Virus record (IMG/VR): IMGVR_UViG_3300036766_000032
Location: 1-64,000 of that record
Source of the DNA: a virus
DNA: 64,000 nucleotides
Direction: 5' to 3' (one strand)
The stretch's first letter is position 1; each line of letters starts with the position of its first letter. The notes under the pieces are model-generated. The model saw only the letters and a program-made list of their open reading frames with translations, ran no database searches and was not told the DNA's origin. This document shows, piece by piece, positions 3,594 to 64,000 of this stretch. The translations under genes and the position numbers were made by a program.

Positions 3594-4039
3594 AAAACAT
3601 AGGGGACTACGTGGATAAGGTCTTATGTGGGATCGCGAAACATGATTGGAGCCTTTTACCTCCTAAGGCGGACCACTGCAACCGGAAAGTTCGAGTGTGC
3701 CTCCGGTGCGGATCGCGGGAGTTCTTCGAGACCGACGCGTTCCATACGACTCCCGAAGGGGTGGACTGGATCCGGCTAAGACCTTCCGAGACCGTAGGGC
3801 AAGGACGAAGTTCGTGGGCGGCTCGTCAGTTGGATTCCATGGACGATGATTTGATAGATCCAGAATTCGAATTGACCCGGGCCTACATTCTCCGATGGAA
3901 TCGCCTGGTTAAAATAGAGAACGACCCGGGTCATATAAAGAAGATGATCCCCATGTGCGCGCTCGAACCCCATGAGTTCGTTCTCGGTCGCTGTCTGTGG
4001 TGCGGGAAAGACCCCCAGGCGGTAAGACGTGGGAGTTGA
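3590..4039 (+). CDS. Cys/His-rich hypothetical protein
   Basis: ATGA overlap; CLRC and CLWC motifs. Confidence 0.5.
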   Translation: MKNIGDYVDKVLCGIAKHDWSLLPPKADHCNRKVRVCLRCGSREFFETDAFHTTPEGVDWIRLRPSETVGQGRSSWAARQLDSMDDDLIDPEFELTRAYILRWNRLVKIENDPGHIKKMIPMCALEPHEFVLGRCLWCGKDPQAVRRGS

Positions 4040-4544
4040 CCGGAGGACCTTGGCGGTCCGGAGGCTGGTGGAGGTACTGTCCAGGAAGTATCAGTTCAAC
4101 CAGGACCAGGTCGAGTCTTACGTTCGAGGATTCACCGCCACTCGAACCAAAGACGCTCTGGGGGAAACATCCGTCGACGGGATTGAGGAGATCATCAGAT
4201 TTCACGGGGAGTTCGACCCCCGGGAGAAGTTATCTTCCCCAAGACCGAAAACTAAGGATGGTTTGAGAAGGGTCGTTGATGTTCCGGTCGGTTCCTCGGA
4301 CAAGGGGGTCAGGCCAGGACGCGTCGCTATCCCGAGGAGAGAATTCAGCATCTGGGTCCATGACCCCGAAGTTAAGTCTAAGTCCACGTTGATCGGGACC
4401 GTGAAGGCCAGGACGTTCAAGGAGTCGATAAGATTCCTAGCCAAGGAGGACCGCAAGTTCTCCCGGAGATTGGACTTCGAGACTCTGACCTACGAGGGGC
4501 GCGTACTGCACGACAACCCTACCGACGCCAAGAAGGATAAGTGA
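4029..4544 (+). CDS. hypothetical phage protein
   Basis: 171-aa ORF ending before an AT-rich promoter region. Confidence 0.5.
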   Translation: MGVDRRTLAVRRLVEVLSRKYQFNQDQVESYVRGFTATRTKDALGETSVDGIEEIIRFHGEFDPREKLSSPRPKTKDGLRRVVDVPVGSSDKGVRPGRVAIPRREFSIWVHDPEVKSKSTLIGTVKARTFKESIRFLAKEDRKFSRRLDFETLTYEGRVLHDNPTDAKKDK

Positions 4545-4592
4545 TCTGTGATCCTCGGTGTAAGTCCATGATTTTATTACCGGTTAAAGATG

Positions 4593-4631
4593 TTTACATT
4601 ACTCTTCTAATAGATGTATGATGGGGTCATC
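4593..4631 (+). promoter_or_regulatory. sigma70-like promoter
   Basis: TTTACA (4593-4598), 18 bp, TG-TATGAT (4617-4622), AT-rich upstream; same pattern recurs at 11985, 22471, 25211. Confidence 0.6.
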
Positions 4632-4654
4632 AAGTCAACCAGGAGAAGATTTCG

Positions 4655-5683
4655 ATGGCACACCAACTAGATATGAGTAATAACAGGACCAACATGGCAT
4701 TCGTTGGCAACCTCCCATGGCACGGGCTGGGCTTCCAGCTACGCCAAGGCGCCACGATCGAGGAGTGGACGCACGCTGCGGGCTTAGCGTGGAGCGCGGT
4801 CAAATCCACCGTGCGCTACGCTGCACAGGACGGGGACGCCACGCGGGTCCTGGACTTCCCGGACAAGGTCGTGGTGTTCCGCGACGACACGTTCAAGCCG
4901 TTGTCCGTGATGACCAAGAACTACAAGGTTCACCAGCCGAAGGATATTCTGGACATGTTCCGGGGATTGACCGAGTCGATGGGATTTGAGATGGAGACGG
5001 CGGGGTCACTATACGGCGGGCGCCGCATCTGGGCCCTGGCCAAGACCGGGAAGGACTTCAAACTTCCCGGAGGGGACGAGGTCCGCGGGTATCTTCTGGT
5101 GGCGACCAGTTACGACGGTTCACTCCGGACGATCGGGAAGTTCACTTCCATCCGAGTGGTGTGCAACAACACCCTGGGGTTCGCCATGGCCGACGGGGAG
5201 AAGAAGTCAGGTCTGACTCACATGCAAACGTTCAGCGCTAACAAGTTGAAGGATCAGCTCGGATTGGTCGATAAGAGTTGGGAACACTTCTCTGAGTTCG
5301 CGAAGGAGTCCGCCAAACTCCGTCCGACCAAGGACATGGTCGGAGAGTTCCTGGTCAAGGTGTTCGGAGACCCGAAGGCTACCGCGGACGACCAACCGAA
5401 GCGCGTGTTCAAGCAAGTGTGGGATGCCGTTACGAACTCCCCCGGAGCCGCGATGAAGTCGTCCGACGGGACAGCCTGGGGGTTGCTCAACGGTGTCACC
5501 TACTACGTCGACCACGTCATGGGTAACAAGCAGGACACGCGACTGGACTCGGCGTGGTTTGGTCGCGGGGAAGCGTACAAGTCGAAGTCGATGGTGATCA
5601 TCGACGAGTGGATGCGAGTGGACGCCAACGAACGCGAGCTGGTTCCGGCGGCTGCGGTGTCCGACATTTTTCCGAATCTATAG
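4655..5683 (+). CDS. DUF932 / phage-plasmid TIGR03299-like protein
   Basis: PWHGLG, ETAGSLYGGRRIWALA, SYDGS, IRVVCNNT, GTAWGLLNGVTYYVDH motifs. Confidence 0.85.
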   Translation: MAHQLDMSNNRTNMAFVGNLPWHGLGFQLRQGATIEEWTHAAGLAWSAVKSTVRYAAQDGDATRVLDFPDKVVVFRDDTFKPLSVMTKNYKVHQPKDILDMFRGLTESMGFEMETAGSLYGGRRIWALAKTGKDFKLPGGDEVRGYLLVATSYDGSLRTIGKFTSIRVVCNNTLGFAMADGEKKSGLTHMQTFSANKLKDQLGLVDKSWEHFSEFAKESAKLRPTKDMVGEFLVKVFGDPKATADDQPKRVFKQVWDAVTNSPGAAMKSSDGTAWGLLNGVTYYVDHVMGNKQDTRLDSAWFGRGEAYKSKSMVIIDEWMRVDANERELVPAAAVSDIFPNL

Positions 5684-5844
5684 AGGAGAATCCCTTGTTC
5701 GGTAAAGAAAAAGTTCTGCTGGATAGGAGCACGAAGCAACGCTGCCACGACTCCTGGAGGAGAGGAATACTCCAGGGATTTCTGCTCGTGATGTTCGTGG
5801 CGGGGGCCATGGTATATCTGATTAACCAACTGAGGTAGACTAAG

Positions 5845-21364: not shown

Positions 21365-21561
21365 TGCTTAAACATGTAGGATGTATCCTTGGGATTCATA
21401 AGTGGGTCCAGAGCCGTCCTCTAGTACAGGCCGACGCGTTCCCACCACCATTCGTGAAATACGACACACCGACGCGCAAGTGTGAGCACTGTAGTAAAGG
21501 ACAGAACTGGCTCCCAGGTTACGGAGGTAGCGAATTCGGATGCTGGATAGACAAAGTATGA
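21364..21561 (+). CDS. small Cys/His-rich protein
   Basis: CILGIHKW...CEHC; AGGAG RBS. Confidence 0.5.
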   Translation: MLKHVGCILGIHKWVQSRPLVQADAFPPPFVKYDTPTRKCEHCSKGQNWLPGYGGSEFGCWIDKV

Positions 21562-22442
21562 GGCCGATGCTTGCAGCCAAACTGGACGACATGCCCGCGC
21601 GCTATCCTCTCCTCGCATCCCCGAAGTTGGACGGAGTGCGTGCCTTGATCATCAACGGGGAAGTGCTGAGCCGTTCACTGAAGCCGATACCGAACCAGCA
21701 CGTCCAGGAACTGTTCGGGCGTCAGGCACTAGAGGGATTCGACGGCGAGTTGATCGTCGGCTCTCCGGTAGCGTCGGACGCATACCGCGCCACGATGAGC
21801 GGAGTCATGAGCCAGAGCGGCGAGCCGGACGTGACGTTCCACGTGTTCGACAACTACACGTTAGCGTACGAAACCTTCGATGTCCGGTTGGCTTCCGTGG
21901 TCCGCGCGATCATTAAACTGCGAAACGGAAACAGGCGCATTCACAGCGTCCCCCACATTCTGGTGTCGCACGACGAGGATCTATTACGGTACGAGACGTG
22001 CATGCTATCAGAGGGTTATGAAGGGGTCATGCTCCGTCACCCGGACGGGGTCTACAAGCATGGGCGAGCTACCTTGCGCGAAGGGTCGCTAATGAAGTTG
22101 AAACGTTTCGAAGACTCCGAGGCCGTGGTACTGGGATGCGACGAGCTGATGCACAACGCCAACGAGGCGACGCGCGACGAATTGGGGCGTACGAAGCGAT
22201 CGAGTCACAAAGCGGGTAAGGTAGGGCGTGGCACTCTCGGAGCGCTCCACGTGCGGGATGTCAAGTCTGGCGTTGAGTTTGACATCGGCACGGGATTCGA
22301 CGACGCGACGCGCAAGGCGCTGTGGGGTGTTCGCACTACCTTGCCGGGGAAACTCGTCAAGTACAAGTATTTCCCCAGCGGTTCGAAGGACAAACCCAGA
22401 TTTCCCGTGTTCTTAGGTTTCCGAGACCTTACCGATCTGTAA
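21558..22442 (+). CDS. minimal ATP-dependent DNA ligase
   Basis: PMLA, motif I KLDGVR, FDGEL, HVFD, EGVMLR, MKLK, OB domain IGTGF and PRFPVFLGFRD. Confidence 0.92.
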   Translation: MRPMLAAKLDDMPARYPLLASPKLDGVRALIINGEVLSRSLKPIPNQHVQELFGRQALEGFDGELIVGSPVASDAYRATMSGVMSQSGEPDVTFHVFDNYTLAYETFDVRLASVVRAIIKLRNGNRRIHSVPHILVSHDEDLLRYETCMLSEGYEGVMLRHPDGVYKHGRATLREGSLMKLKRFEDSEAVVLGCDELMHNANEATRDELGRTKRSSHKAGKVGRGTLGALHVRDVKSGVEFDIGTGFDDATRKALWGVRTTLPGKLVKYKYFPSGSKDKPRFPVFLGFRDLTDL

Positions 22443-50960: not shown

Positions 50961-51917
50961 TTACGCCACCGCGCCGCTGAAGAAGTAGCCTGCGTCCGTC
51001 ATGACCACTTTCTGATCATAAGAGAACTCGCCTTCCACGCGGTCCGACTCCAGGTGTTCCATACGGAAGCGCTTAACACGCACGCCACCATTGGCACCTG
51101 AGAACTTCGACCATGTGAACGAGTATCCTGCCGACGGAACCATCAGCCCAGGACTTGGCGCTACGAAGCACAACAGCGCATGCTTGCCAAGTACGAACGC
51201 GTCGACGTCGGTCGCAGCGAGCTCTTCGCTCGTCGTGTAAGACGCTTGTGCTACGATGTACCGATCCACTTCGAAGAAGCGCGCCAATAACGCCGTAGTG
51301 ATCGCATCCGACGTGGTGTGCTTGTACCGATCGGTTATGATCGGATGACGTTTCAAAGCTTGATGCACATCGTACCCGACCACGAGAGTGTTCGGATTCA
51401 GACCGAGAGCCTTGCGGATCTTGGTCTTGCCAGCGTCGATGTCTGCTTCCGGGTCGGATCCACCGTCATCCCAAAGTGCGAAGTCGGTGCTGCCGGTCTT
51501 ATCCGTTCCCCACACGCTGGTGGTGAAATACTTAGTTCCCCAGTTGACTTCTTTCTGGATCAGCATCTGCTGAGTGATGAACTCAGTGGCGCTGCGATCC
51601 ATGTCCAACGAAGGGTCCGCGTTGTTACGGATCTGGTCCGGAACGTCGTGGTGGAACGCGTATACCTCCGCTTTGTAAGTGTCAGTGTCCACGTTGAAGC
51701 CGCTACCGGCGGATTCAGCGCCAGGAGCACGAGGGCGCGCGTTGTTACGACGGAAGTCCCGGCTGCGATACTTGAAATAAGAATCGGACTGGAACTCCAC
51801 GGGAACTGCCGGAAATACTTGCGTCGCGACGAAGTCGGATGCACTCTGAATAGCAGCGACAGCAATGTTAGTCAGTGAACGTACGACGTGCACGTCACCT
51901 CGTGTGGGTTGCGGCAT
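50961..51917 (-). CDS. major capsid protein (HK97 fold)
   Basis: follows scaffold and cement genes; LTNIAV, VFPAVPV, RAPGAES, DPEADI, PNTLVVG, KRHP, PSAGYSF. Confidence 0.85.
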   Translation of the reverse strand: MPQPTRGDVHVVRSLTNIAVAAIQSASDFVATQVFPAVPVEFQSDSYFKYRSRDFRRNNARPRAPGAESAGSGFNVDTDTYKAEVYAFHHDVPDQIRNNADPSLDMDRSATEFITQQMLIQKEVNWGTKYFTTSVWGTDKTGSTDFALWDDGGSDPEADIDAGKTKIRKALGLNPNTLVVGYDVHQALKRHPIITDRYKHTTSDAITTALLARFFEVDRYIVAQASYTTSEELAATDVDAFVLGKHALLCFVAPSPGLMVPSAGYSFTWSKFSGANGGVRVKRFRMEHLESDRVEGEFSYDQKVVMTDAGYFFSGAVA

Positions 51918-51976: not shown

Positions 51977-52378
51977 TTACGCGTGTTCAACGATGAACGT
52001 CGGGAACCCGACTGTTACCGTGGCCAGTTCCCCGGTCGCAGCACCGACGAGAACCTGTCCTGCCACGTAGTCACCAAGATCAGCGCCCGTGTACGTCTTC
52101 TCAACCTTCGTTGCCTTGCCTAGCGTGGTGGTCCCCCAGTAGTCACCGGCCACCAGAGCTTCTGCCGCCATGACCTTCGTCACTCCCAACACCATTACTT
52201 CACCCGCCATGCCGGAGTCCGGCTTGTCTTGCAACACACCCAGCAGAACTTCACCGTCCGTGTCACAGAGCGAAAACTGATTGTCCGCCGACACCTTGAC
52301 GCACTTGTACTGATTGCTCGCCATGCTGGCGTTCGCAACCAGTGCGCCGATACTGCCAATCTTCTGTTCCCATGCCAT
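51977..52378 (-). CDS. capsid cement protein (DUF2190-like)
   Basis: LGVLQDKP..G...EV...GVTKV.A; upstream of the major capsid gene. Confidence 0.7.
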   Translation of the reverse strand: MAWEQKIGSIGALVANASMASNQYKCVKVSADNQFSLCDTDGEVLLGVLQDKPDSGMAGEVMVLGVTKVMAAEALVAGDYWGTTTLGKATKVEKTYTGADLGDYVAGQVLVGAATGELATVTVGFPTFIVEHA

Positions 52379-52435
52379 TGCGATTTCCTCTTCAGATTGT
52401 TAAATAGACTACGCAGAATTCCGCTGTATTGACTA

Positions 52436-53395
52436 CTAGCGAACTTCGCGCTCCTGCCGTTCTTTCTTGGCGAGATCTGGGTGCTCATCCAGCGCCTTGA
52501 GGAACGCTTGCTCGATTGTGATTTTACCACCATCACGCTTACGGATTTCCTCAGCCTTGCGAGTGAGTTGATCCGTCGCCGTTGCACGATCGCCTTCAAG
52601 ATCCCCACCGGCCGACCCAAGTTCCTTGAAACTCGCAGACATCCCTTTGTCCGCCGCTTTGAGAACTCGATCCAGTTCTTCATACATTGCAGTCGGCATA
52701 GCTTCCGAAGCAGACTTTAGCACCGGACCGAAGCGCGCGGGGTCCACTGACAGGTGTTTCAGATCCGCAGCTTTGGCGATGAATTCCTTCATCTTGCGTT
52801 CGTCACGCTCCTGCTTCAGTACAGCTTCCGACGTGGCGAGTGCCGCCGTGTTCGCACGGTTCTGCTTCCACAGTAGCTCCACGAACGGGCGCATTGCGAC
52901 TGGGATCTTTTCCGAGTCCAATGAACCGTCTGCCTTCATCACAGCTTTACAGGCTTCATCCTCGGACAATGCCGGATCACCCTTTGCTTTCGATTCCATG
53001 GCCGCGTCCGGTTCCTTTGGCTCTTCCGGATACTTGTATCCCGCCATGTCGGCAAGTGTCTTGATGATGTCTTCCGGGAGTTCCCCTTTGACAGACTCAA
53101 GAGCTTTGAGCGCGGTCTTGACTGCGGTCGTTGCATCTTCTGACAGACCTGCTTTCGCAAGAACTTCGGAAAACTTGACATCGGACTTGGCAACGCTTCG
53201 AAGAATCTTGAGTAAGCCACCGTTACCGGCAACCGACTTCAAGACTTCTGCGTCTTCATCTGTACTGACGTTCAAAATAACTTCGTTCATGAGACCTCCT
53301 GCGTTCTTCAGTAAAATAAATTTCCAGCGGTTTGCTGGGTGGTCAACAACCGAGACTTCTGCTACCTCCAAATCAACTAATTCTTTCTGCGGCAC
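52436..53395 (-). CDS. capsid scaffold with XkdF-type N-terminal peptide
   Basis: MPQKELVDLEVAEVSVVDHPANRWKFILLK then charged helical region ending EHPDL. Confidence 0.7.
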   Translation of the reverse strand: MPQKELVDLEVAEVSVVDHPANRWKFILLKNAGGLMNEVILNVSTDEDAEVLKSVAGNGGLLKILRSVAKSDVKFSEVLAKAGLSEDATTAVKTALKALESVKGELPEDIIKTLADMAGYKYPEEPKEPDAAMESKAKGDPALSEDEACKAVMKADGSLDSEKIPVAMRPFVELLWKQNRANTAALATSEAVLKQERDERKMKEFIAKAADLKHLSVDPARFGPVLKSASEAMPTAMYEELDRVLKAADKGMSASFKELGSAGGDLEGDRATATDQLTRKAEEIRKRDGGKITIEQAFLKALDEHPDLAKKERQEREVR

Positions 53396-53403
53396 CGATC
53401 ACC

Positions 53404-55671
53404 TCACCTAGTTAGCGGGCGGATAGCTTTTTCTGCAAGCCCGCCTATTGAGAATCCAGTCAATTCCCCTTTCTCTACTTTATTCCATGTTTCGTCGTCA
53501 CTGACTTTAACGGTCATCATCCAAGATCCTTGTTTGATCTTTCTACCTTCTATAGTTAGAGAAACGGGAGCCACCCAGCTCTCAACCACGAAGCAGTGCG
53601 GATTCTGTTGGGCGTGCTGTACTCCCACTGCCCGACTCTTTACTAGATAATTGTGCGCAGCTTGTTCGATTACCTCGGAACTCGCATACTCATCTTGAGT
53701 GTCAAGTTCATCTGGCTCCATCACCAGTCCCGTGACGAGCCGCTTCTTCGCGTTCTTCGTAACGATGGTGACGTCGTTCTTGACCGTCTTCAGTTCTATT
53801 AGTTCTGGCTCGGTGCCCGGTTTCGCCCAGATGAGTTTATCGTGACCCCGTTTCTTCAGATCCGCCACAACGTCTTCAAGTTTCTGAGACTCTGCCATCG
53901 GCGTTTGGTCAACCGGCTTACCGATCATCCACACTCTCCGTGCCGGACCCATCGGAACTGACGCAATGATATAGCGCCCATCGAGCTTGTCACCATGTAC
54001 GAACACTTCCGCGAAGTGGCGGTGTCGCACTCCCATCTGGTAAGTGCCGTGATCAAGCGCGAAGAACTTCGCATACGTGTTAGCGGTCGCGCCGACGCCC
54101 GCTGGTTCCACAAGAAGCGGAGCGCGTACACCGACGTCGAGCCACGGCTTCGGCTGTGCCAGTTTGAACGTGCCTTGTAGTTTGTCGTCTGGTGGAAGAT
54201 GCTCTAATCGGTCCCCTTTTCTATTCGCATCTGTGGTGCCTATGAACGCTGAGAAACCCCACAGAGCGTCGTCAGCTTCGAACCGCAGATCCCCGTGTAC
54301 GCTGTGGTCCGTCTTCATGAGTTCCGCATCACTCAACCCAGTCTCATCCAATTCGTCATTCTTCAGCAACCCGCGCCAGTGGTGTTGATATACAAATCGT
54401 CCGTTGCCAGACTTCGGGTAAGTCCGGAACCAGTTATCCCGCCAGAACTTCTCCGCTGACTCCCCATGCGTATCCCCCTCTTCACCGGCTGCCTTTTTGA
54501 CTTCCTTGTCTTGCAACACACTCCCACGCTGCGCTATGTCGATCGCTTGCTTTGCTGCGTACGGAGCCTTGCGAGTGGGGTCTACGTCCATGACGTTAGC
54601 GCCGAGCCACACCAGAGTCTTCTTTTCTTCGTCGGGGATCAACTCAAGCACGCGAACGGTTATGATGTCACCGACCTTCGCTTTCACCTTGGTGTTGAAT
54701 GACCACCCGAGGTCGACGAATCCGTCCTTCGCAAGCGTCACGTTTTCCCAGCCATCGCTGGGTGATGCGCTCAGTCCGCCGCGATAGTTGTACATACCCC
54801 CGGCCACGTCCTTCGTGTCCAAAACCTGTACCTTCAATTCCGCCACCTTCTTGACCTTGCTCCACTCGTTGGTCTCGCCAACCGGGTAGGGTCCGCTCGC
54901 CGTCTTCGCCATCGCGCCTTCAGAGCGTGGGATGCTGTACGCCTGATGCACTGCGTCGACGAGTTTGTCGTGTGTGTCGACCCATTTCACGGGGGACAGA
55001 CGGATGAATCGGTCATCGAAGAATGAATTCGGAAGTTCTTCAAGCTGCTTACGACGTTCTACGAACGGAAGCTCTGATAGGTCATCCGCGTAGTACGGCA
55101 TGTCGAACAAGGTAACTACAGGAACTTCATTTACAACGAAGACGGGTTTATCGGAGTTGAGTCGCATCAGCTCCGGGCGCGCCAAGCGCTTCCCCTCCTT
55201 CTCTATTCCCAGATCAGCGTCAAAGATCCAGGATCCAGGTATCTTTGCAAATGCAGTCTTAAGATTCGGCAACGTCTCGAACAGATTACGGGAAGCGTTC
55301 CCTTCGGTCCACATCTTCAGTCTGTCACCCTTCTTTTCAACGATGACTCGGAACCCGTTCCACTTCGGCTCGATCGCGACTGGGAGCTTGTCCTTTGCCC
55401 AGTCCCACAGTTCGGTCGTCGAGAATATCTCAGTGAGTCCAGCGAGCGAAGGCTTGGCGGGAACGAACGGCTTGAACGGAGACATCGACTTCTGAACTTC
55501 ACGCTTCAACGTCACCAGCAACGGTCCAATCCGCCCTCCAGACTTTGACACCGCCAGTTGCTCAAGCTCATACAACTGACGAATCAAAGCGCGCGGATCC
55601 GCTCCTGGCAGCTCAAGCTTACCAACTAGCTGGTCGATACAGTCAACGATCTCCGCAGTATCATCACGCAT
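53404..55671 (-). CDS. fusion: ATP-dependent ligase + LigD-type 3'-phosphoesterase + XkdF-like prohead serine protease
   Basis: ligase EPKWNGFR, IFDAD, LFD, EGAMAK, WSKVK and OB-like segment; PE FVYQHH, HGDLRFE, DHGTY, GDKLDGRY; protease LVTGLVMEP, DTQDE, ESW, GSW, LTGFSIGG. Confidence 0.8.
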   Translation of the reverse strand: MRDDTAEIVDCIDQLVGKLELPGADPRALIRQLYELEQLAVSKSGGRIGPLLVTLKREVQKSMSPFKPFVPAKPSLAGLTEIFSTTELWDWAKDKLPVAIEPKWNGFRVIVEKKGDRLKMWTEGNASRNLFETLPNLKTAFAKIPGSWIFDADLGIEKEGKRLARPELMRLNSDKPVFVVNEVPVVTLFDMPYYADDLSELPFVERRKQLEELPNSFFDDRFIRLSPVKWVDTHDKLVDAVHQAYSIPRSEGAMAKTASGPYPVGETNEWSKVKKVAELKVQVLDTKDVAGGMYNYRGGLSASPSDGWENVTLAKDGFVDLGWSFNTKVKAKVGDIITVRVLELIPDEEKKTLVWLGANVMDVDPTRKAPYAAKQAIDIAQRGSVLQDKEVKKAAGEEGDTHGESAEKFWRDNWFRTYPKSGNGRFVYQHHWRGLLKNDELDETGLSDAELMKTDHSVHGDLRFEADDALWGFSAFIGTTDANRKGDRLEHLPPDDKLQGTFKLAQPKPWLDVGVRAPLLVEPAGVGATANTYAKFFALDHGTYQMGVRHRHFAEVFVHGDKLDGRYIIASVPMGPARRVWMIGKPVDQTPMAESQKLEDVVADLKKRGHDKLIWAKPGTEPELIELKTVKNDVTIVTKNAKKRLVTGLVMEPDELDTQDEYASSEVIEQAAHNYLVKSRAVGVQHAQQNPHCFVVESWVAPVSLTIEGRKIKQGSWMMTVKVSDDETWNKVEKGELTGFSIGGLAEKAIRPLTR

Positions 55672-58241
55672 TACGCAGCCCTCTTGTTCAGTAGTAACAG
55701 CAACTCATCCTCTGACTTGCGGCGTCTGATGTTCGGTGCTGAGACAATTAGAGGCGCAGAGTGCAGCGTAGCCACCGCGCTTCCTCGCATAAGTATAGGC
55801 CAGATCTCTGCAGAGTACCATAATACCGGCCTCCTGCAAGTCGGTGCACCACCTGCTACCTCTATTCCGCCGTCCGGTTCGTAGCAGTAACAGAGCGCTA
55901 TTCGCGGGTGAACCGACAACCAGCCACGCGGGACGATGCTGATTTCCGCAGCCGGTAAGAAGGTGACGAGCGATGCCCCTCCAGTCTGTAATCCACCAGA
56001 CGCGGTGTATCCGCCGCCGCCTATCAGGGCAGCCTCTGCGGCCCCGCCGCTTTGCAGCCCGCCCGTCGCAGCGTAGTCCTTAGTCTTAGCCTGTGCCGCC
56101 GCGCCGCCGCTGCCTAAGCCACCACCTGCCTCGAACGCTTTGCCCTTGGCTACGCCCGCCGCGCCGCCGCTTTGCAGCCCGCCCAGCGCGGCGAACTCCT
56201 TCGCTTTGGACACCACGGCCACGCCACCCGTCGAAGGACCGCCCGCCGCAATAAAAGACTTTACTTTTACTAAAAAAGAGTATCCGGCGACGTCTATGCC
56301 GCCCTGTGCAGCGAAGTCCTTCGTCTTGGACCAGTCGGCGCCACTGCCCGCAGAGAGGCCAGACACGGCTGAGTACGTCTTGACCTTGACCAGCTCCGCG
56401 ATGCCGCCGCTCTGAAGTCCGCCGCTCGCCGAGTATGAATACGTCTGCCCTCCCCAATAATTTGCGTATCCGTCCGTCAGCACGCCGCCGCTGGAGTCGA
56501 ACGCTTTGGTCTTGGACAAGCCCGCCACACCACCCGTGAGCAATCCACCGGACGCGGAGTAGGCGAGGATGTTCGATTCTGACGTCGTGGCTGCGCCGCT
56601 TACGTCTAGACCGCCCTGCGCAGCGAAGTCCTTGGTCTTAGACCAGTCGGCACCACCGCCCGCAGAGGGACCAGACACGGCGATGTAGTCCTTGGTCTTC
56701 GAATATGGGGACGTCCCGCCTAGAACCGTGCCGCCGAGAACTTCCAGCACCTTCGTCTTGCTTAAACTGGCAGCGCCGCCGCTTTGCAGCCCGCCGCTCG
56801 CAAGGTAGGTATAGACGGCTCCTTCAGACGTGTTCGCCGCGCCGCTTGTTTGCGCGCCTCCTGAAGCTGCGAATGCTTTGGTCTTGGCGAAGTCCGCCAC
56901 ACCGCCGAGCAGCACGCCGCCGCTGACTGCGAACGTCTTCGCCTTCGAGAGCTCCGCCACACCGCCGAGCAGCACGCCGCCGACTCCGGCGTAAGCGTAG
57001 ACGTGCGCACCGACTGAGGTGTTCGCACTGCCGCTCGTCTGTACCAGACCCGTCGCGAGAAAGTCCTTTACCTTCGCAAGCGCTGCAGAACCGGCGACGT
57101 CCACGCCGCCTTGCGCAGCGAAGAGGACAGTCTTAGACCAGTCAGCAGAACCGCCAGTACTCGGACCCGAGACCGCTACGTAGATCTTGACCTTTACTAG
57201 ATCCGCAACGCCGCCAGTTTGAATGCCTCCAGCGGATACAGGCTCCTTCGTCTTTGAAAGACCCGCAACGCCGCCCGTGAGCAAACCCCCGGACGCGACG
57301 TAAACCCCGATGTCGTTCAGCTCAGAAGTAGTTGCCGCGCCGCCTAGACCGATACCGCCGGACGCGATGAAGTCTTTGAGCTTCTGCACACTGGCCGCAC
57401 CATCGAACAGTACGCCGCCCGCGACAGCGTAGTCCTTTGTCTTTGACAGGTCAGCGGAACCGCCAGTAGATAAGCTTCCCGACGCAACGTAGGAGTAGAT
57501 GTTGGACGTGGGGGAAGTGTTCGCGGCACCTCCGCTCTGCAACCCTCCAGCAGCTTCATAAGCCTTGGTCTTAGACAGGTTTGCGGCACCGCCCGTCTGG
57601 ATCCCGCCCACTGCGACGTAAGCACCAACGACGAGACTCTGCTCCGTCGTCGCAATGCCTCCGGTAGAGACGCCACTGACTGCGGAATACGCCTTAGTCT
57701 TCGCGAGATCCGCAACGCCGCTAAGCCCCACCCCGCCGGACGCGATGAACGCTTTGAGCTTAGCGACGTCAGTAGTCCCGCCAGCTAGAACACCGCCGCT
57801 GACGACGTAGTCCTTCGTCTTCGCCAGATCGGCAGCGCCGCTCGCCAGCACGCCTCCAGAAGCGACGTACCCTAGGACGTTGGACTCGGAAGTTGTGGAA
57901 GCGCCGCCCGTGGACACTCCGCCGATTGAGACGTAGGTCTTGGTCTTGGATAGCGCAGGACTGCCGCCAGTGAGCAATCCACCGGAGACCACGTAGTCCT
58001 TCGTCTTGGAAAGTAGTGCTGCACCACCGGAGAGGATTCCTCCGGAAGCTGCGTAAGAACCGATGACGTTTAATTCAGAAGTGGTAGCTGTACCACTAGT
58101 AGAAATTCCACCAGCTACAGTATAGGACTTGGTTCTTGAGAAGTCAGCTACACCACCGGTCTGGAGTCCGCCCGACCCCTCGTACACATAGGTCTGGACT
58201 ACCGACCATCCAAACTGATTCCAGATCTTGACGACATGCAT
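55671..58241 (-). CDS. Gly/Ala/Ser/Thr-rich repeat virion fibre
   Basis: roughly 35 tandem 20-24-aa repeats Y/FxASGGxxTGGxAxxSKTKD. Confidence 0.7.
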   Translation of the reverse strand: MHVVKIWNQFGWSVVQTYVYEGSGGLQTGGVADFSRTKSYTVAGGISTSGTATTSELNVIGSYAASGGILSGGAALLSKTKDYVVSGGLLTGGSPALSKTKTYVSIGGVSTGGASTTSESNVLGYVASGGVLASGAADLAKTKDYVVSGGVLAGGTTDVAKLKAFIASGGVGLSGVADLAKTKAYSAVSGVSTGGIATTEQSLVVGAYVAVGGIQTGGAANLSKTKAYEAAGGLQSGGAANTSPTSNIYSYVASGSLSTGGSADLSKTKDYAVAGGVLFDGAASVQKLKDFIASGGIGLGGAATTSELNDIGVYVASGGLLTGGVAGLSKTKEPVSAGGIQTGGVADLVKVKIYVAVSGPSTGGSADWSKTVLFAAQGGVDVAGSAALAKVKDFLATGLVQTSGSANTSVGAHVYAYAGVGGVLLGGVAELSKAKTFAVSGGVLLGGVADFAKTKAFAASGGAQTSGAANTSEGAVYTYLASGGLQSGGAASLSKTKVLEVLGGTVLGGTSPYSKTKDYIAVSGPSAGGGADWSKTKDFAAQGGLDVSGAATTSESNILAYSASGGLLTGGVAGLSKTKAFDSSGGVLTDGYANYWGGQTYSYSASGGLQSGGIAELVKVKTYSAVSGLSAGSGADWSKTKDFAAQGGIDVAGYSFLVKVKSFIAAGGPSTGGVAVVSKAKEFAALGGLQSGGAAGVAKGKAFEAGGGLGSGGAAAQAKTKDYAATGGLQSGGAAEAALIGGGGYTASGGLQTGGASLVTFLPAAEISIVPRGWLSVHPRIALCYCYEPDGGIEVAGGAPTCRRPVLWYSAEIWPILMRGSAVATLHSAPLIVSAPNIRRRKSEDELLLLLNKRAA

Positions 58242-58247
58242 GAGCCG

Positions 58248-59951
58248 CTAGTCCGTTAATCGTTTGACGAGGATCGCCGCGAAGGCGCACCCGCTGATTG
58301 CTCCGTGGGCGTGGATGTGAAAGTAGCTGCCAACTTCTAGTAGCCACGGCTCATGGGGAGCCCAACTGATTGTAGAGTTCGCTGGTACTCGGATGATGAC
58401 TTCCGTACCGGGCACCGTAGCGTCGTTGATGTCGTGCACTTCGCAGTAGATCGCGGCTGCGACAGAACAGGAGAACACGATTTCGAAGTCGTACAACTCT
58501 TCATTCGCCACACGCGGAGACCTCGCAAGTGTGGTCTCATCCGCGATTGGCGAAGCGCAGATCTCCCCTTCTGTGAACATTGGTAACGTGGAGACCGATA
58601 GCGTGGCGTACCACTCCGTCGTAGCCGCACCTCCCGTCGTGACTCCTCCGGAGACGCTGGTCAACTTGTCCTTTGACACCTCCGCGACGCCGCCAGTCTG
58701 CGCACCGCCGCTGCCCGTGGGAGCTTTGGTCTTGGCGAGCGTGGCGGTGCCCGCTGTCTGCGCGCCTCCAGACGCGATGTAGCTATGCCCGAACAGCGTC
58801 TGCGCGACGCCACTCGCCGCAATACCACCGGAGACGGGGAAGTCCTTGCCCTTCGCTACAGACGCCGCACCGACTGTAGCCGCACCGCCAGAAGCGAGCG
58901 TGGCCTTTACCTTCAAAACGGCTGAGACACCGCCTGATGCCGCGCCGCCGACGCCCGTGTACAAACCCTTACTCGCGAACATCTGGGTCGTGGCGACACC
59001 GCTCGTGGAGGCACCGCCGACACCCGTGTACGTCTTGACCACGGCGGGATTAGTGAAGTAGCCAAGCCGGTAGGAGTCTACACCCGTGTTGGAGATGTTC
59101 CCCTGCGAGACGTACGAAGCATCAACGCCGACCGTGTCGAACGCATGTGACGCGCCGCCAGGATAGTCGAGCAGGGACGTGGCCGAGTCGTCCTTGTCGC
59201 GCACGCCGTACGTGTAAGTCGTCGCACTAGAGATCGTTTCAATGAGTTGCGCAACTGAAGCTGAGGCAGCAGCGTAGTCGATCCACGAGCCGGACGTCGA
59301 TAGTGAGATGTTCGTGGCGTTGGTAGCGTACACTGCGCTCGACTTGACGTACCCGATCAGGAAATACACATCCCCGTTCGAGCCGTAAGCGTCACAGTTC
59401 TCAGTCCCGTCTACCCCGCACTCGCCCCAGATGTGCGCGTCGCACGCCTGCGTTCGATTGTCCGTTGAGCCGTTCTTGCGAAGTCCGACGTTCGCAGCGG
59501 ACACGCGCTCGAAGATTGCTCCTATCGCCGTATCCGCTCCAGTGTCGGCGGAGATATCTACTCCACGCCAAGCGTCGCCCATGCCGCCGCCACTGAGTGT
59601 CTTGGATACGCCGGTGGTGAAGAACACCGCGTCGTCGGTGTGATAGCCGACGAGCCAGATCTGTACAGACGCGTTCCCGACGTACGCTTCGAAGATGTTG
59701 CTCGCATCGACGCCCACCGCACCCATTCCCTGATAGTGGGTGCCGATGTTGGTTATGCGGTTGTCGGCCGAACCGTTCTTCCGCAGACCCACCGCGTACG
59801 AGGTGGCTGTGCTCGTGTTCTTTACGATCAGCTTGACGCCAGAGATCGATCCAGCAAGGCTGGTTACGAAGAAGCTGTCCAGGTCGACGGCTTGCCAAGA
59901 CCCCGTCGTGACTGGAGTTACATTGACCGGCGTGACTGTGAAGTAGGACAT
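58248..59951 (-). CDS. virion fibre-like protein
   Basis: N-terminal duplicated domain (GLRKNGSxDNR twice) then the same SGGxxxxGxA repeats. Confidence 0.6.
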   Translation of the reverse strand: MSYFTVTPVNVTPVTTGSWQAVDLDSFFVTSLAGSISGVKLIVKNTSTATSYAVGLRKNGSADNRITNIGTHYQGMGAVGVDASNIFEAYVGNASVQIWLVGYHTDDAVFFTTGVSKTLSGGGMGDAWRGVDISADTGADTAIGAIFERVSAANVGLRKNGSTDNRTQACDAHIWGECGVDGTENCDAYGSNGDVYFLIGYVKSSAVYATNATNISLSTSGSWIDYAAASASVAQLIETISSATTYTYGVRDKDDSATSLLDYPGGASHAFDTVGVDASYVSQGNISNTGVDSYRLGYFTNPAVVKTYTGVGGASTSGVATTQMFASKGLYTGVGGAASGGVSAVLKVKATLASGGAATVGAASVAKGKDFPVSGGIAASGVAQTLFGHSYIASGGAQTAGTATLAKTKAPTGSGGAQTGGVAEVSKDKLTSVSGGVTTGGAATTEWYATLSVSTLPMFTEGEICASPIADETTLARSPRVANEELYDFEIVFSCSVAAAIYCEVHDINDATVPGTEVIIRVPANSTISWAPHEPWLLEVGSYFHIHAHGAISGCAFAAILVKRLTD

Positions 59952-62279: not shown

Positions 62280-62456
62280 CTAACCACTGCCCTCGCATTC
62301 CATATTCGGCTTGTACAAAGCCTCGTTCAACTTCGCCGCTTCCTGCTTGGCTAGTGCTTCATCGAGCGCTTTATCCAGCGCGTCGTCCCATCGATCGAAC
62401 GGATCCTTACCGGGTTCCGCTGTCGACGAGCTTGGGGGTTTCTCCGGTGTTGTCAT
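62280..62456 (-). CDS. small acidic protein
   Basis: GGAGG RBS before ATG 62456, overlapping the end of the Zeta-domain gene. Confidence 0.4.
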   Translation of the reverse strand: MTTPEKPPSSSTAEPGKDPFDRWDDALDKALDEALAKQEAAKLNEALYKPNMECEGSG

Positions 62457-63999
62457 ACTTCCTCCAGGATTTCGCATATGGTTTTAATGCGTCGTAGCTC
62501 TTATCAATACCAGACCCGAATGCCGTGGCCGCGTACACTGGCGGAACAAACCGACCCCCTTTCTTGAACCGCTCGTACGCACGTTGACCGGATTTAAGAT
62601 CGCTGACGTGAACCTGCACCACGTGCACGTCGTACCCAAGTCTGGTCAACTTCTCCGCCATTTTTTCCATCTTTGTGGTATTCTTACCGGTCATATCGAA
62701 CACCGCATTGTGGCGCCCAGCGAGCACCTTACCCATGAAGTCCTTCTCCGCGATGTCCGCCGCGCGCTCGTGATACGCTCCTGCAAGTCTTGGTGTGTAG
62801 CCCGGAAGCGCTTCCATCACTTTGTCCGCGTCTACTGTAGTGTACTCTCCTTTTAGATCCAGATGCTCCTTCCGAACGGTACTCTTCCCAGATCCCGGCT
62901 TGCCCATCATTACGACTGCTTGCGGACGCTCACCCGGAGCTGCCGCAGAATTCGGGTTGATCAACTTGGTCGCAATGTCGGCGTTCTCCGCCTTCGCTTC
63001 AGGTGTGTAGTCCACACCGTTGGTCGTAACTCCAGGATCGTTCTTGTGATCGCCACGGTCCGCGTTCGCCTTGTGCGCTGCGATGACGGCTGGATCTTGC
63101 TCCACTACAATCGAGAAGTCTTTGACAGACGTAGCGGTGAGCGGAGTTACTCCGGTCTCTGTCGATCGCGTTGATGTATCCCCACCACCACCTTCCCCAA
63201 ACCTGCCCGCCTCTCCACGCGGATGCAACGATTCGTCCCAACCGGCTTTCTCGACGGACTCTTCCGTGTTGACAATGCGTACGATGTCGCCTGCTGCGTT
63301 GCGCTCAACCTCCTGCACTGTGCGCGTCGGACGCGGCACGCTGACCTGGATCACTGGAGCGAGTGCTTGTGGAACGTTGACGTGCACTGTAGGCGGTTGC
63401 ACACTGAGCGCCATCGACTTGGAGATCGACTCTAGCAACACCAACGTCTGAGAATAGAATTCCGGGACTGTGTCTTTAGGCCCGATCGTTAGTTGCACAG
63501 GAGTAGGTGCGAACAGCGCACGAGCGGCGAGTAGTTTAGCACGGACCTCGTCGGTGCTGGCCGCCTTGGTGATGCCTCGCAGCGCAGTCGCTACGCGCTT
63601 CATCGTGTTGTCCGGCTTGCGCAGCACGCCATGAACGTTGATCCGATCCCCGCCGCCGATTTCTTCAAGCTCCACTTGCTCGAAACAGGGTCGATCCTCC
63701 ACGAACTTCGGGTTGGTCCAGAACGCGAACGAAGACTTGTTCCAGAACGTCTTGTGGTCTGGGTGTGCGAACGCCCCTTCTCCTCGGGTGGAGGGCGTCT
63801 CGAACTCTAACGTTCCGCCGGGCTTGAGCACTCTGTAAATCTCCCGCATGATCGCGTCGGCGTCAGAACAGTGTTCCAGGAAGTGGAGCGCACGTATCTC
63901 ATCAACCGAGTCGTCCCCGCACGGGATGCCGTTCTCCAAGTCCCATGTGACGTCCGCGTCTGACTCCGGGTTAGAGTCGATGCCGACGAACCCCTCTGC
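62407..63999 (-). CDS. head-associated polyprotein (5' partial): SAM methyltransferase + linker + Zeta-toxin-like P-loop kinase
   Basis: frame open to the window edge (AEGFVGID...); DSVDEI.ALHFLEH, EIYRVLKPGG; WDESLHPRGEAGRF; GKPGSGKST, VDAD, HERA, FDMTG, R...GGRFVP, YDN. Confidence 0.75.
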   Translation of the reverse strand, partial: AEGFVGIDSNPESDADVTWDLENGIPCGDDSVDEIRALHFLEHCSDADAIMREIYRVLKPGGTLEFETPSTRGEGAFAHPDHKTFWNKSSFAFWTNPKFVEDRPCFEQVELEEIGGGDRINVHGVLRKPDNTMKRVATALRGITKAASTDEVRAKLLAARALFAPTPVQLTIGPKDTVPEFYSQTLVLLESISKSMALSVQPPTVHVNVPQALAPVIQVSVPRPTRTVQEVERNAAGDIVRIVNTEESVEKAGWDESLHPRGEAGRFGEGGGGDTSTRSTETGVTPLTATSVKDFSIVVEQDPAVIAAHKANADRGDHKNDPGVTTNGVDYTPEAKAENADIATKLINPNSAAAPGERPQAVVMMGKPGSGKSTVRKEHLDLKGEYTTVDADKVMEALPGYTPRLAGAYHERAADIAEKDFMGKVLAGRHNAVFDMTGKNTTKMEKMAEKLTRLGYDVHVVQVHVSDLKSGQRAYERFKKGGRFVPPVYAATAFGSGIDKSYDALKPYAKSWRKYDNTGETPKLVDSGTR

Positions 64000-64000
64000 C

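Follow-up and report, generated by a model that had tools for sequence, protein, structure and literature searches.

Why should a phage join a DNA ligase and a phosphoesterase to the protease that is predicted to mature its head? The question is raised by one open reading frame (ORF) in a 64,000-nucleotide stretch of viral DNA, positions 1 to 64,000 of IMG/VR record IMGVR_UViG_3300036766_000032 (hereafter the window). The record is the complete 75.9 kb genome of an uncultured sediment phage (CheckV 100%), and positions beyond 64,000 are outside the window. The ORF (P0001) lies on the minus strand at 53404..55671, with its stop codon at 53404-53406, and its length of 755 amino acids (aa) is confirmed. 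The original prediction, made from the sequence, described this ORF as a ligase, a LigD-type phosphoesterase and an XkdF-type protease fused within the head operon, and interpreted the fusion as a means of carrying end-repair enzymes in the capsid. The observation is confirmed: profile and structure searches run for each domain upheld all three modules, and there is full support for their location in the head operon. For the interpretation, the support is partial.

Three domains in one head-operon protein

The 755-aa ORF is translationally coupled to the gene before it. Its ATG overlaps the TAA of the upstream 856-aa gene (TAATG), and a Shine-Dalgarno sequence, AAGAGGG, precedes it. The protein starts with a helical region (aa 1-95; 55387..55671, on the minus strand like all coordinates within this ORF), of which aa 1-60 form three helices modelled with a predicted local distance difference test score (pLDDT) of ~60. 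The last ~30-45 residues before the next domain have blastp matches in many relatives (e.g. P0003, 61% over 33 residues). The nucleotidyltransferase (NTase) domain of an ATP-dependent DNA ligase (PF01068) follows at aa 96-285 (54817..55386), and then the all-beta OB-fold domain of the ligase at aa 286-389 (54505..54816; pLDDT ~90). A disordered linker, KEVKKAAGEEG (aa 390-400; 54472..54504; pLDDT <50), leads to a domain of the phosphoesterase (PE) superfamily, here termed MID, at aa 401-625 (53797..54471), which is recognized by family profile and fold. The C-terminal part is the XkdF-type (Peptidase_S78_2) serine protease identified by Pfam (aa 635-748; 53428..53769). The PHROGs and NCBIfam matches are consistent with the Pfam domain calls. 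In the full-length model (pLDDT 86) the domains appear as folded modules with low-confidence linkers at 77-79, 390-400 and 629-633, and linker pLDDT <50 coincides with the domain borders. The disordered linkers, including that at 390-400, are candidate natural cleavage sites for the protease in this model.

The protease matches Pfam Peptidase_S78_2/XkdF (PF14550) with an E-value of 1.4e-32 and 112.8 bits against a cut-off of 24, over profile positions 3-124 of 126. A six-frame search of the genome with XkdF gave one domain (117.3 bits), and no other prohead protease of the S78, ClpP or S49 type was found in the genome. Because there is one XkdF domain and no S78, ClpP or S49 protease in a complete genome, the 755-aa protein is the sole recognizable prohead protease of this phage. 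Its motif GFSIGG stands at 739-744 as originally reported. D657, H686 and S741 (in G-F-S-I-G-G) do not vary among 19 XkdF segments, nor do D657 and H686 among 39 full-length relatives; these three residues would form the catalytic triad. The position in the head module and the lack of an alternative protease agree with a predicted activity in head maturation.

The ligase assignment rests on both profile and structure. Pfam DNA_ligase_A_M (PF01068) matches aa 98-274 (E 1.7e-13, 51.2 bits vs cut-off 26.2), the NCBIfam matches of this part are all DNA-ligase models, and phmmer pairs the ligase with 3gde (E 1.5e-10) and, weakly, the OB region with 6rar (E 0.18). The PDB neighbours listed by Foldseek (about 48, ranks 1-50) are all ATP-dependent DNA ligases, with E-values down to 1.9e-16, and include archaeal enzymes, human Lig1/3/4 and T4 DNA ligase. 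Since these alignments cover 375-455 columns, exceeding the NTase domain alone, the OB domain is included in the structural match. The quoted ligase motifs are in place: KWNGFR at 103-108 with the nucleophile Lys103 (motif I), FDAD at 150-153 with D151 and D153 (III), LFD at 188-190 with F189-D190 (IIIa), EGAMAK at 251-256 (IV) and WSKVK at 270-274 with K272 and K274 (V). K103 is kept in 132 of 134 homologs, and G106, R108, D151, F189-D190, E251-G252, K256, K272 and K274 are conserved across the same set. The original prediction had noted that KxNG in motif I and DAD in motif III deviate from the usual pattern and leave the choice between DNA and RNA open. KxNG turned out to be a mere polymorphism of the family, in which the Asp position of motif I is N in 69 and D in 63 of the 134 homologs; at the Glu position of motif III, E is found in 72 and D in 47. 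The question of substrate now leans towards DNA rather than RNA, because the listed structural neighbours are DNA ligases and the partner domains in relatives, UDG and Dam, act on DNA. As had also been predicted, a second, conventional ligase is present. This small ATP-dependent DNA ligase belongs to the replication module (21540..22442, plus strand; phrog_114, E 5.9e-62; PF01068 and PF14743), and the two ligases of the phage are unrelated in pairwise comparison (BLASTP E 2.2).

The PE domain is less easily recognized. Pfam, including LigD_N, returned nothing for aa 396-625 alone, even at E 10, and the genome, searched in six frames with LigD_N, gave no match either. Because Pfam is blind on MID alone, the LigD-PE identity becomes visible only through family profile and fold. 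An exhaustive HMMER search with MID gave 398 representative clusters (50% identity), 183 of them below 1e-30, and almost all of the matches lie within proteins of 500-2000 aa. When a 25-sequence alignment of MID (A1) was used as a profile against the PDB, only LigD-type phosphoesterases were matched (3p43, 5dmp, 3p4h, 3n9b, 2lj6), and HMMER paired HGDLR (H459-x-D461-x-R463) with the HYDFR motif of 3p43, 5dmp, 3p4h and 3n9b. Individually, 16 of the 25 family members reach Pfam LigD_N, with a best E of 1.2e-05. The fold gives the same answer. The AlphaFold2 model of MID (pLDDT 94.4) consists of an N-terminal helix, an 8-stranded barrel with a 21-aa insertion and a C-terminal helical tail. Its top 7 Foldseek matches are all PE structures at probability 1.00. 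VIA-align superposes it on 3p43 (MbaPE) with Z 13.8 and a root-mean-square deviation of 1.8 Å over 123/124 residues, on 3p4h (CkoPE) with Z 13.4 over 117/118 residues and on 3n9b with Z 11.9, the next unrelated fold reaching only Z 3.0.

In the active site of PE enzymes, two His and an Asp bind manganese, an Arg and a further His bind phosphate, and a Tyr also takes part; in the Pae enzyme, the phosphate-binding His84 and the active-site Tyr88 are essential in mutagenesis (PMC3082917). The motifs originally quoted for MID are where they were said to be (QHH 429-431, HGDLRFE 459-465, DHGTY 540-544, GDKLDGRY 560-567). Among 225 distinct MID sequences, H431, H459, D461 and R463 are invariant (225/225). 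H431, H459 and D461 are the predicted metal site and R463 the predicted phosphate ligand, H431 being assigned from the QxH motif and its location before the first strand, not by residue-level superposition. The position of the second, phosphate-binding His is occupied by Gln (Q506) in 183 of the 225 and by His in 8, and that of the canonical Tyr by Trp (W510) in 223. The register of Gln506 and Trp510 is that of the spacing of 'H-P-x-x-Y' vs 'Q506-P-K-P-W510', not of structural residue pairing, and it rests on motif spacing because a phmmer search of the PDB with one family member that has the His returned nothing but spurious bacteriophytochrome matches. Two further residues, Lys503 (225/225) and Glu555 (224/225), are kept. 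Thus, the fold and the His/His/Asp/Arg set bear out the original claim of a LigD-type phosphoesterase. Because the canonical second His and Tyr are replaced, MID is classed as a divergent clade and not as a canonical LigD PE: it is homologous to the PE superfamily but forms a clade of its own within it, with the metal site intact and the phosphate pocket remodelled.

The fusion in relatives and its neighbours in the head module

The fusion is kept across a family of viral genomes. When IMG/VR was scanned with the MID alignment, 80 loci were obtained, and in most of these, as well as in 2 contigs of metagenome-assembled genomes (MAGs), the order is TerL-portal-MuF-[giant ORF]-scaffold-p133-major capsid protein (MCP). 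The giant ORF reads [sister aa 10-200]-[sometimes methyltransferase]-ligase NTase-OB-[often UDG family 4 or Dam]-PE-XkdF, where the sister is a second protein of the present phage described below. PE stands directly ahead of XkdF in nearly all family members, even in those without the ligase, and relatives also carry LigT/2H and Acb1 domains. MID occurs in just five MAG contigs among ~186,000 species genomes, two of them with the same head module, and the matches in BFVD are only metagenomic viral proteins. Going by the MAG matches, Dehalococcoidia/Chloroflexota and Methanothrix are candidate hosts. In one relative (L077:5422-9621), a LAGLIDADG_3 domain (E 1.3e-09), probably an intein, breaks the OB region of the ligase. 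The sequence of the window itself was also recovered separately: a Logan assembly of a sediment metagenome, probably from the source sample, covers 52300-58400 within a single contig of 60 kb, at a depth of 17 and without any difference. Among the sequencing runs listed with this stretch there was one DNA run, probably of the source sample, and no RNA run.

The sister polyvalent protein has 1007 aa. It is encoded on the minus strand (L082:1411-4431) and overlaps the portal stop; its C-terminal part lies at 62407..64000 of the window, and the gene extends to genome position 65430. It consists of an N-terminal module (aa 10-200), an Acb1 2H phosphodiesterase (aa 201-339), a RyR domain, a class-I methyltransferase (aa 482-550) and a Zeta/AAA_33 P-loop kinase (aa 832-971). 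The Acb1 domain is a full-length match to the anti-CBASS 2H phosphodiesterase family (Pfam PF23474, E 4e-25). The first 200 aa match no Pfam family; they are found as the N-terminus of the ligase-PE-XkdF gene in >60 related phages, where sister aa 10-200, sometimes with the methyltransferase, are fused ahead of ligase-PE-XkdF. From comparison with this single giant ORF of the relatives, it follows that the phage carries a split form of the giant gene of its lineage, with the 1007-aa protein as one half and ligase-PE-XkdF as the other. By the same comparison, a 'head polyvalent protein' specific to the lineage has the 755-aa ORF as its C-terminal half. Five unrelated genes (6.7 kb) separate the two halves: an 856-aa and a 567-aa repeat gene and three smaller ones. 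The 856-aa (55671-58241) and 567-aa (58248-59951) proteins, both on the minus strand, are rich in Gly/Ala/Ser, with repeats such as GG..TGG.A..SKTK.Y, and have no PHROG or Pfam match.

Downstream of the protease, on the minus strand, the head genes follow. A scaffold-like protein of 319 aa (52436..53395) has a separate GTG start behind a AGGTGAGGTGA Shine-Dalgarno. A head protein of 133 aa (p133; 51977..52378) is assigned from phrog_673 (E 3.7e-08) and from its synteny with scaffold and MCP in relatives, and the MCP of 318 aa (50961..51917) matches phrog_1005 (E 7e-85). The scaffold and capsid genes were thus correctly placed in the original prediction; its 'cement' label is at best tentative, the sole match of the 133-aa gene being phrog_673, 'head scaffolding protein'. 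MCP residues 1-318 align to positions 2-315 of the 315 of phrog_1005, with no N-terminal extension, which would fit a separate scaffold.

Near its N-terminus, the scaffold carries the peptide EVSVVDHPANRWKF (scaffold aa 13-26, ~53318-53359, minus strand; consensus EVSLVDxxANxKKF). It is kept in 47 of 57 related scaffold genes (alignment A4), in each case immediately following the XkdF gene, and ordinary XkdF proteins lack it; we consider it a candidate docking, recognition or cleavage element for the protease. Its part 'EVSVVDHPAN' as a missing last strand of the protease was rejected, and the protease domain is taken as complete, because ordinary XkdF proteins do without this peptide in cis. 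A frameshift fusion of protease and scaffold was also rejected for this phage, where a TGA lies just upstream of the scaffold GTG and frame 0 stops before the GTG. One sub-lineage has the scaffold frame overlapping the final 20-30 XkdF codons across a conserved AGGGGGGT run (L076:1358-1413, L025:7667-7731, L067:9827-9882, L055:8089-8141). This run is most simply a Shine-Dalgarno sequence plus a TTG start; alternatively, it may be a slippery frameshift joining protease and scaffold.

Proposed capsid delivery and competing explanations

The fusion may be explained by a mechanism in which the protease serves as a carrier. The protease domain would co-assemble with the scaffold in the procapsid and bring the attached ligase and PE inside, where the protease would cut the flexible linkers (aa 390-400 and 629-633) besides the scaffold. 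Once freed, ligase and PE would remain by the packaged DNA and accompany it into the host. The PE would then convert blocked 3' ends (3'-phosphate or 3'-ribonucleotide) to 3'-OH, and the ligase would seal the nick. Damage acquired outside the cell or from host nucleases would be mended in this way, and relatives would load UDG, Dam, methyltransferase or Acb1/2H on the same carrier. We infer each of these steps, from incorporation of the N-terminal domains through cleavage, capsid retention and ejection to the DNA substrate.

Prohead proteases must act inside the procapsid. In this phage, the unextended MCP, the separate scaffold and the single protease argue that XkdF would work there. The idea of capsid loading is further supported because XkdF is the only prohead protease in a complete genome, because the fusion is kept in the canonical protease slot in ~80 viral contigs, and because none of the three domains varies in its catalytic residues. 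It also draws support from the relatives, which put Acb1/2H, Dam, UDG and methyltransferase in the same polypeptide, from the sister half-protein, which carries Acb1, and from the match of the architecture to the class of polyvalent proteins (PMC5512222).

Several points weigh against capsid delivery. That anything N-terminal of the protease enters the capsid, and stays there, is something that we infer. Well-studied prohead proteases digest themselves, and the fragments often leave the procapsid. A possible cleavage code, Φ-x-K-[ASNG], is present before PE in 61 of 177 homologs; at 34% vs ~18% expected the enrichment is modest, and the code was not accepted. Since Gln506 and Trp510 occupy those positions of the PE pocket where the phosphate-binding His and the Tyr are canonical, the predicted 3'-phosphatase activity of MID is not assured. 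Motif VI, sought by eye in the OB domain of the ligase, was not identified. Two Chloroflexota/Dehalococcoides MAG loci (L086, L087) carry a ligase-PE that ends at PE; XkdF is absent, as are head genes within 6 kb, and the loci may represent a non-head use of the same module; one of the two is on a 175-kb contig. None of the cultured phages in INPHARED carries the fusion; the close relatives are uncultured, as is the present phage.

Taken together, the grounds for and against the reading that the enzymes are delivered in the capsid and then heal and seal the incoming DNA seem to us evenly balanced. The wider proposal, that in a widespread uncultured lineage of tailed phages the prohead protease is a covalent handle loading an injected DNA-repair kit that acts on entry or against defence nucleases, is held tentatively, as slightly more apt to prove wrong than right. 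Circularization of the genome, which the original prediction had offered as another use of the enzymes, gained no specific support. The genome has a terminal direct repeat of exactly 127 bp (window position 1 and genome position 75896). The repeat may be an assembler's overlap, a sign of a circular assembly and not of true virion ends, and is therefore uninformative on the genome termini.

The strongest competitor is that the protein acts as a polyprotein late in the cytoplasm. The XkdF domain would act as an autoprotease that frees ligase and PE late in infection, only the protease piece would enter the procapsid, and the freed enzymes would clean and seal nicks in the replicated, base-modified concatemers before packaging. 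Indeed, the gene belongs to the late head operon, to which its translation is coupled, packaging motors depend on duplex DNA that is intact, and the two MAG loci show ligase-PE without XkdF. However, a conventional ligase is already available in the replication module, and the abutment of PE and XkdF nearly family-wide is hard to explain by expression timing alone. Also, Acb1/2H, Dam and methyltransferase in the relatives are typical injected cargo of polyvalent proteins (PMC5512222). We take this possibility seriously and judge it unlikely.

Alternatively, the injected kit may repair RNA. Together with the 2H, kinase and methyltransferase domains of the sister protein, ligase and PE would mend tRNAs cut by anticodon nucleases, after the model of T4 Pnkp/Rnl or bacterial Pnkp/Hen1. 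The set of kinase, 2H, methyltransferase, NTase ligase and phosphoesterase does parallel Pnkp/Hen1, motif I is KxNG in half of the family and PE enzymes are able to process 3'-ribonucleotide ends (PMC3082917), but the structural neighbours listed for the ligase are all DNA ligases, its OB domain is present and its NCBIfam matches are DNA-ligase models throughout. The partners fused in relatives, UDG family 4 and Dam, are DNA enzymes, the 2H domain is Acb1-like (E 4e-25), which indicates degradation of cyclic nucleotides and not healing of RNA ends, and a kinase-ligase fusion is found in none of the relatives examined. RNA repair is thus improbable.

Still less probable, by a clear step, is that the ligase and PE folds are non-catalytic and make up an internal protein that binds DNA, fills space or regulates the protease as a pro-region. 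The PE pocket is non-canonical, and internal proteins of the T4 type are a precedent for capsid cargo without enzymatic activity; nevertheless, the catalytic Lys103 and the full set of NTase motifs persist in 132-134 of 134 homologs and His/His/Asp/Arg in 225 of 225, and inactive domains normally lose such residues. Finally, an assembly chimera or mis-called fusion, conceivable for a sequence from a single metagenome-derived genome, is effectively refuted by 87 homologous proteins and 80 independent viral contigs with the same order; the Logan contig agrees as well.

If the ligase and PE do travel in the capsid, genome repair at entry would be a phage strategy in its own right. It would bear on the survival of virions over long extracellular periods in sediments and on resistance to those defence nucleases whose products are nicks or blocked ends. 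Capsid loading would then have a general and simple rule, fusion to the prohead protease, usable for chosen enzymes. Repair enzymes are present in the virions of African swine fever virus and giant viruses; a kit borne by this fusion would be a parallel to these and, to our knowledge, the first virion-borne DNA-repair system in phages. Regardless of packaging, a large virus-restricted clade of LigD-PE is defined, and the chemistry of its remodelled pocket is worth measuring.

Comparison with known systems

Plain XkdF proteases of cultured phages, such as Lactococcus ul36-like and Rhizobium RHph phages, have the same domain and occupy the same slot between portal and capsid genes, but they are 212-349 aa long and have no enzyme cargo. 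Some cultured phage genes labelled 'DNA methyltransferase/prohead protease' were considered as fusions and rejected, being plain XkdF genes. Examples are a coding sequence (CDS) of Rhizobium phage RHph_Y1_11 (L083, CDS 5064-5702, 212 aa), which bears this label, and one of Lactococcus phage 56701 (L084, CDS 3998-5047, 349 aa), called 'DNA methyltransferase'. The methyltransferase label has probably spread from fused forms through the shared family name phrog_1530, and on these plain XkdF genes in GenBank it is probably misleading. No deposited phage has the full fusion. The archaeal virus ANMV-1 (KP703175.1) encodes a ligase (AJP62006.1) that aligns by tblastn with aa 98-597 at 24% identity (E 5e-15), a range spanning the query from ligase through the PE region; unlike the present protein, this ligase (L085:2955-5555, 866 aa) has no XkdF and no recognizable head module. 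The ANMV-1 ligase gene adjoins a MutT-like hydrolase.

With bacterial LigD, the enzyme of non-homologous end joining that combines PE, LIG and POL, the protein shares an ATP-dependent ligase and a 3'-phosphoesterase of the PE fold in one chain. Its barrel superposes on the archaeal stand-alone PE (CkoPE 3p4h, MbaPE 3p43) at Z 13.4-13.8, and the Mn-binding His/His/Asp and the phosphate-binding Arg are kept. The order in the phage is LIG-PE and not PE-LIG, the ORF has no POL domain (no further Pfam domains were found in it), and Ku has no match in the complete genome. The phage PE also differs from LigD and the archaeal enzymes by a 21-residue insertion that separates the two histidines of the metal site, an additional N-terminal helix, a C-terminal tail, the invariant Lys503 and Glu555, Gln for the second His and Trp for Tyr.

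The closest class is that of the polyvalent proteins of phages and conjugative elements, in particular those members with an assemblin-like peptidase, which is 'always at the C termini', and for which packaging and injection were predicted (Iyer, Burroughs, Anand, de Souza, Aravind 2017, PMC5512222). The protein has the features of this class: at least two disparate enzymatic domains in one polypeptide, head and portal/MuF neighbours, a C-terminal prohead-type peptidase, and domains and architectures that vary among relatives. The words 'DNA ligase', 'LigD' and 'XkdF' do not occur in the main text of that paper, and literature searches on XkdF or maturation proteases with ligase, and on LigD phosphoesterase in phage capsids, gave no description of the architecture. 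What differs from the known members is the cargo, here enzymes predicted to heal and seal DNA ends (joined by UDG or Dam in relatives), the peptidase, which belongs to the XkdF family and is the only prohead protease of the phage, and the gene of this phage, which is split in halves 6.7 kb apart. The polyvalent class itself is known; new here are a polyvalent head protein with a predicted DNA-repair cargo, the XkdF carrier and a new PE clade.

Enzymes and anti-restriction proteins that are loaded into the head and injected are familiar from the T4 internal proteins and Alt, P1 Dar and the N4 virion RNA polymerase (PMC5512222). There, each cargo is a protein of its own, and short signals or partner proteins provide the targeting. 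In the present case, the cargo is covalently joined to the protease, and its predicted task is DNA repair and not modification of the host or transcription.

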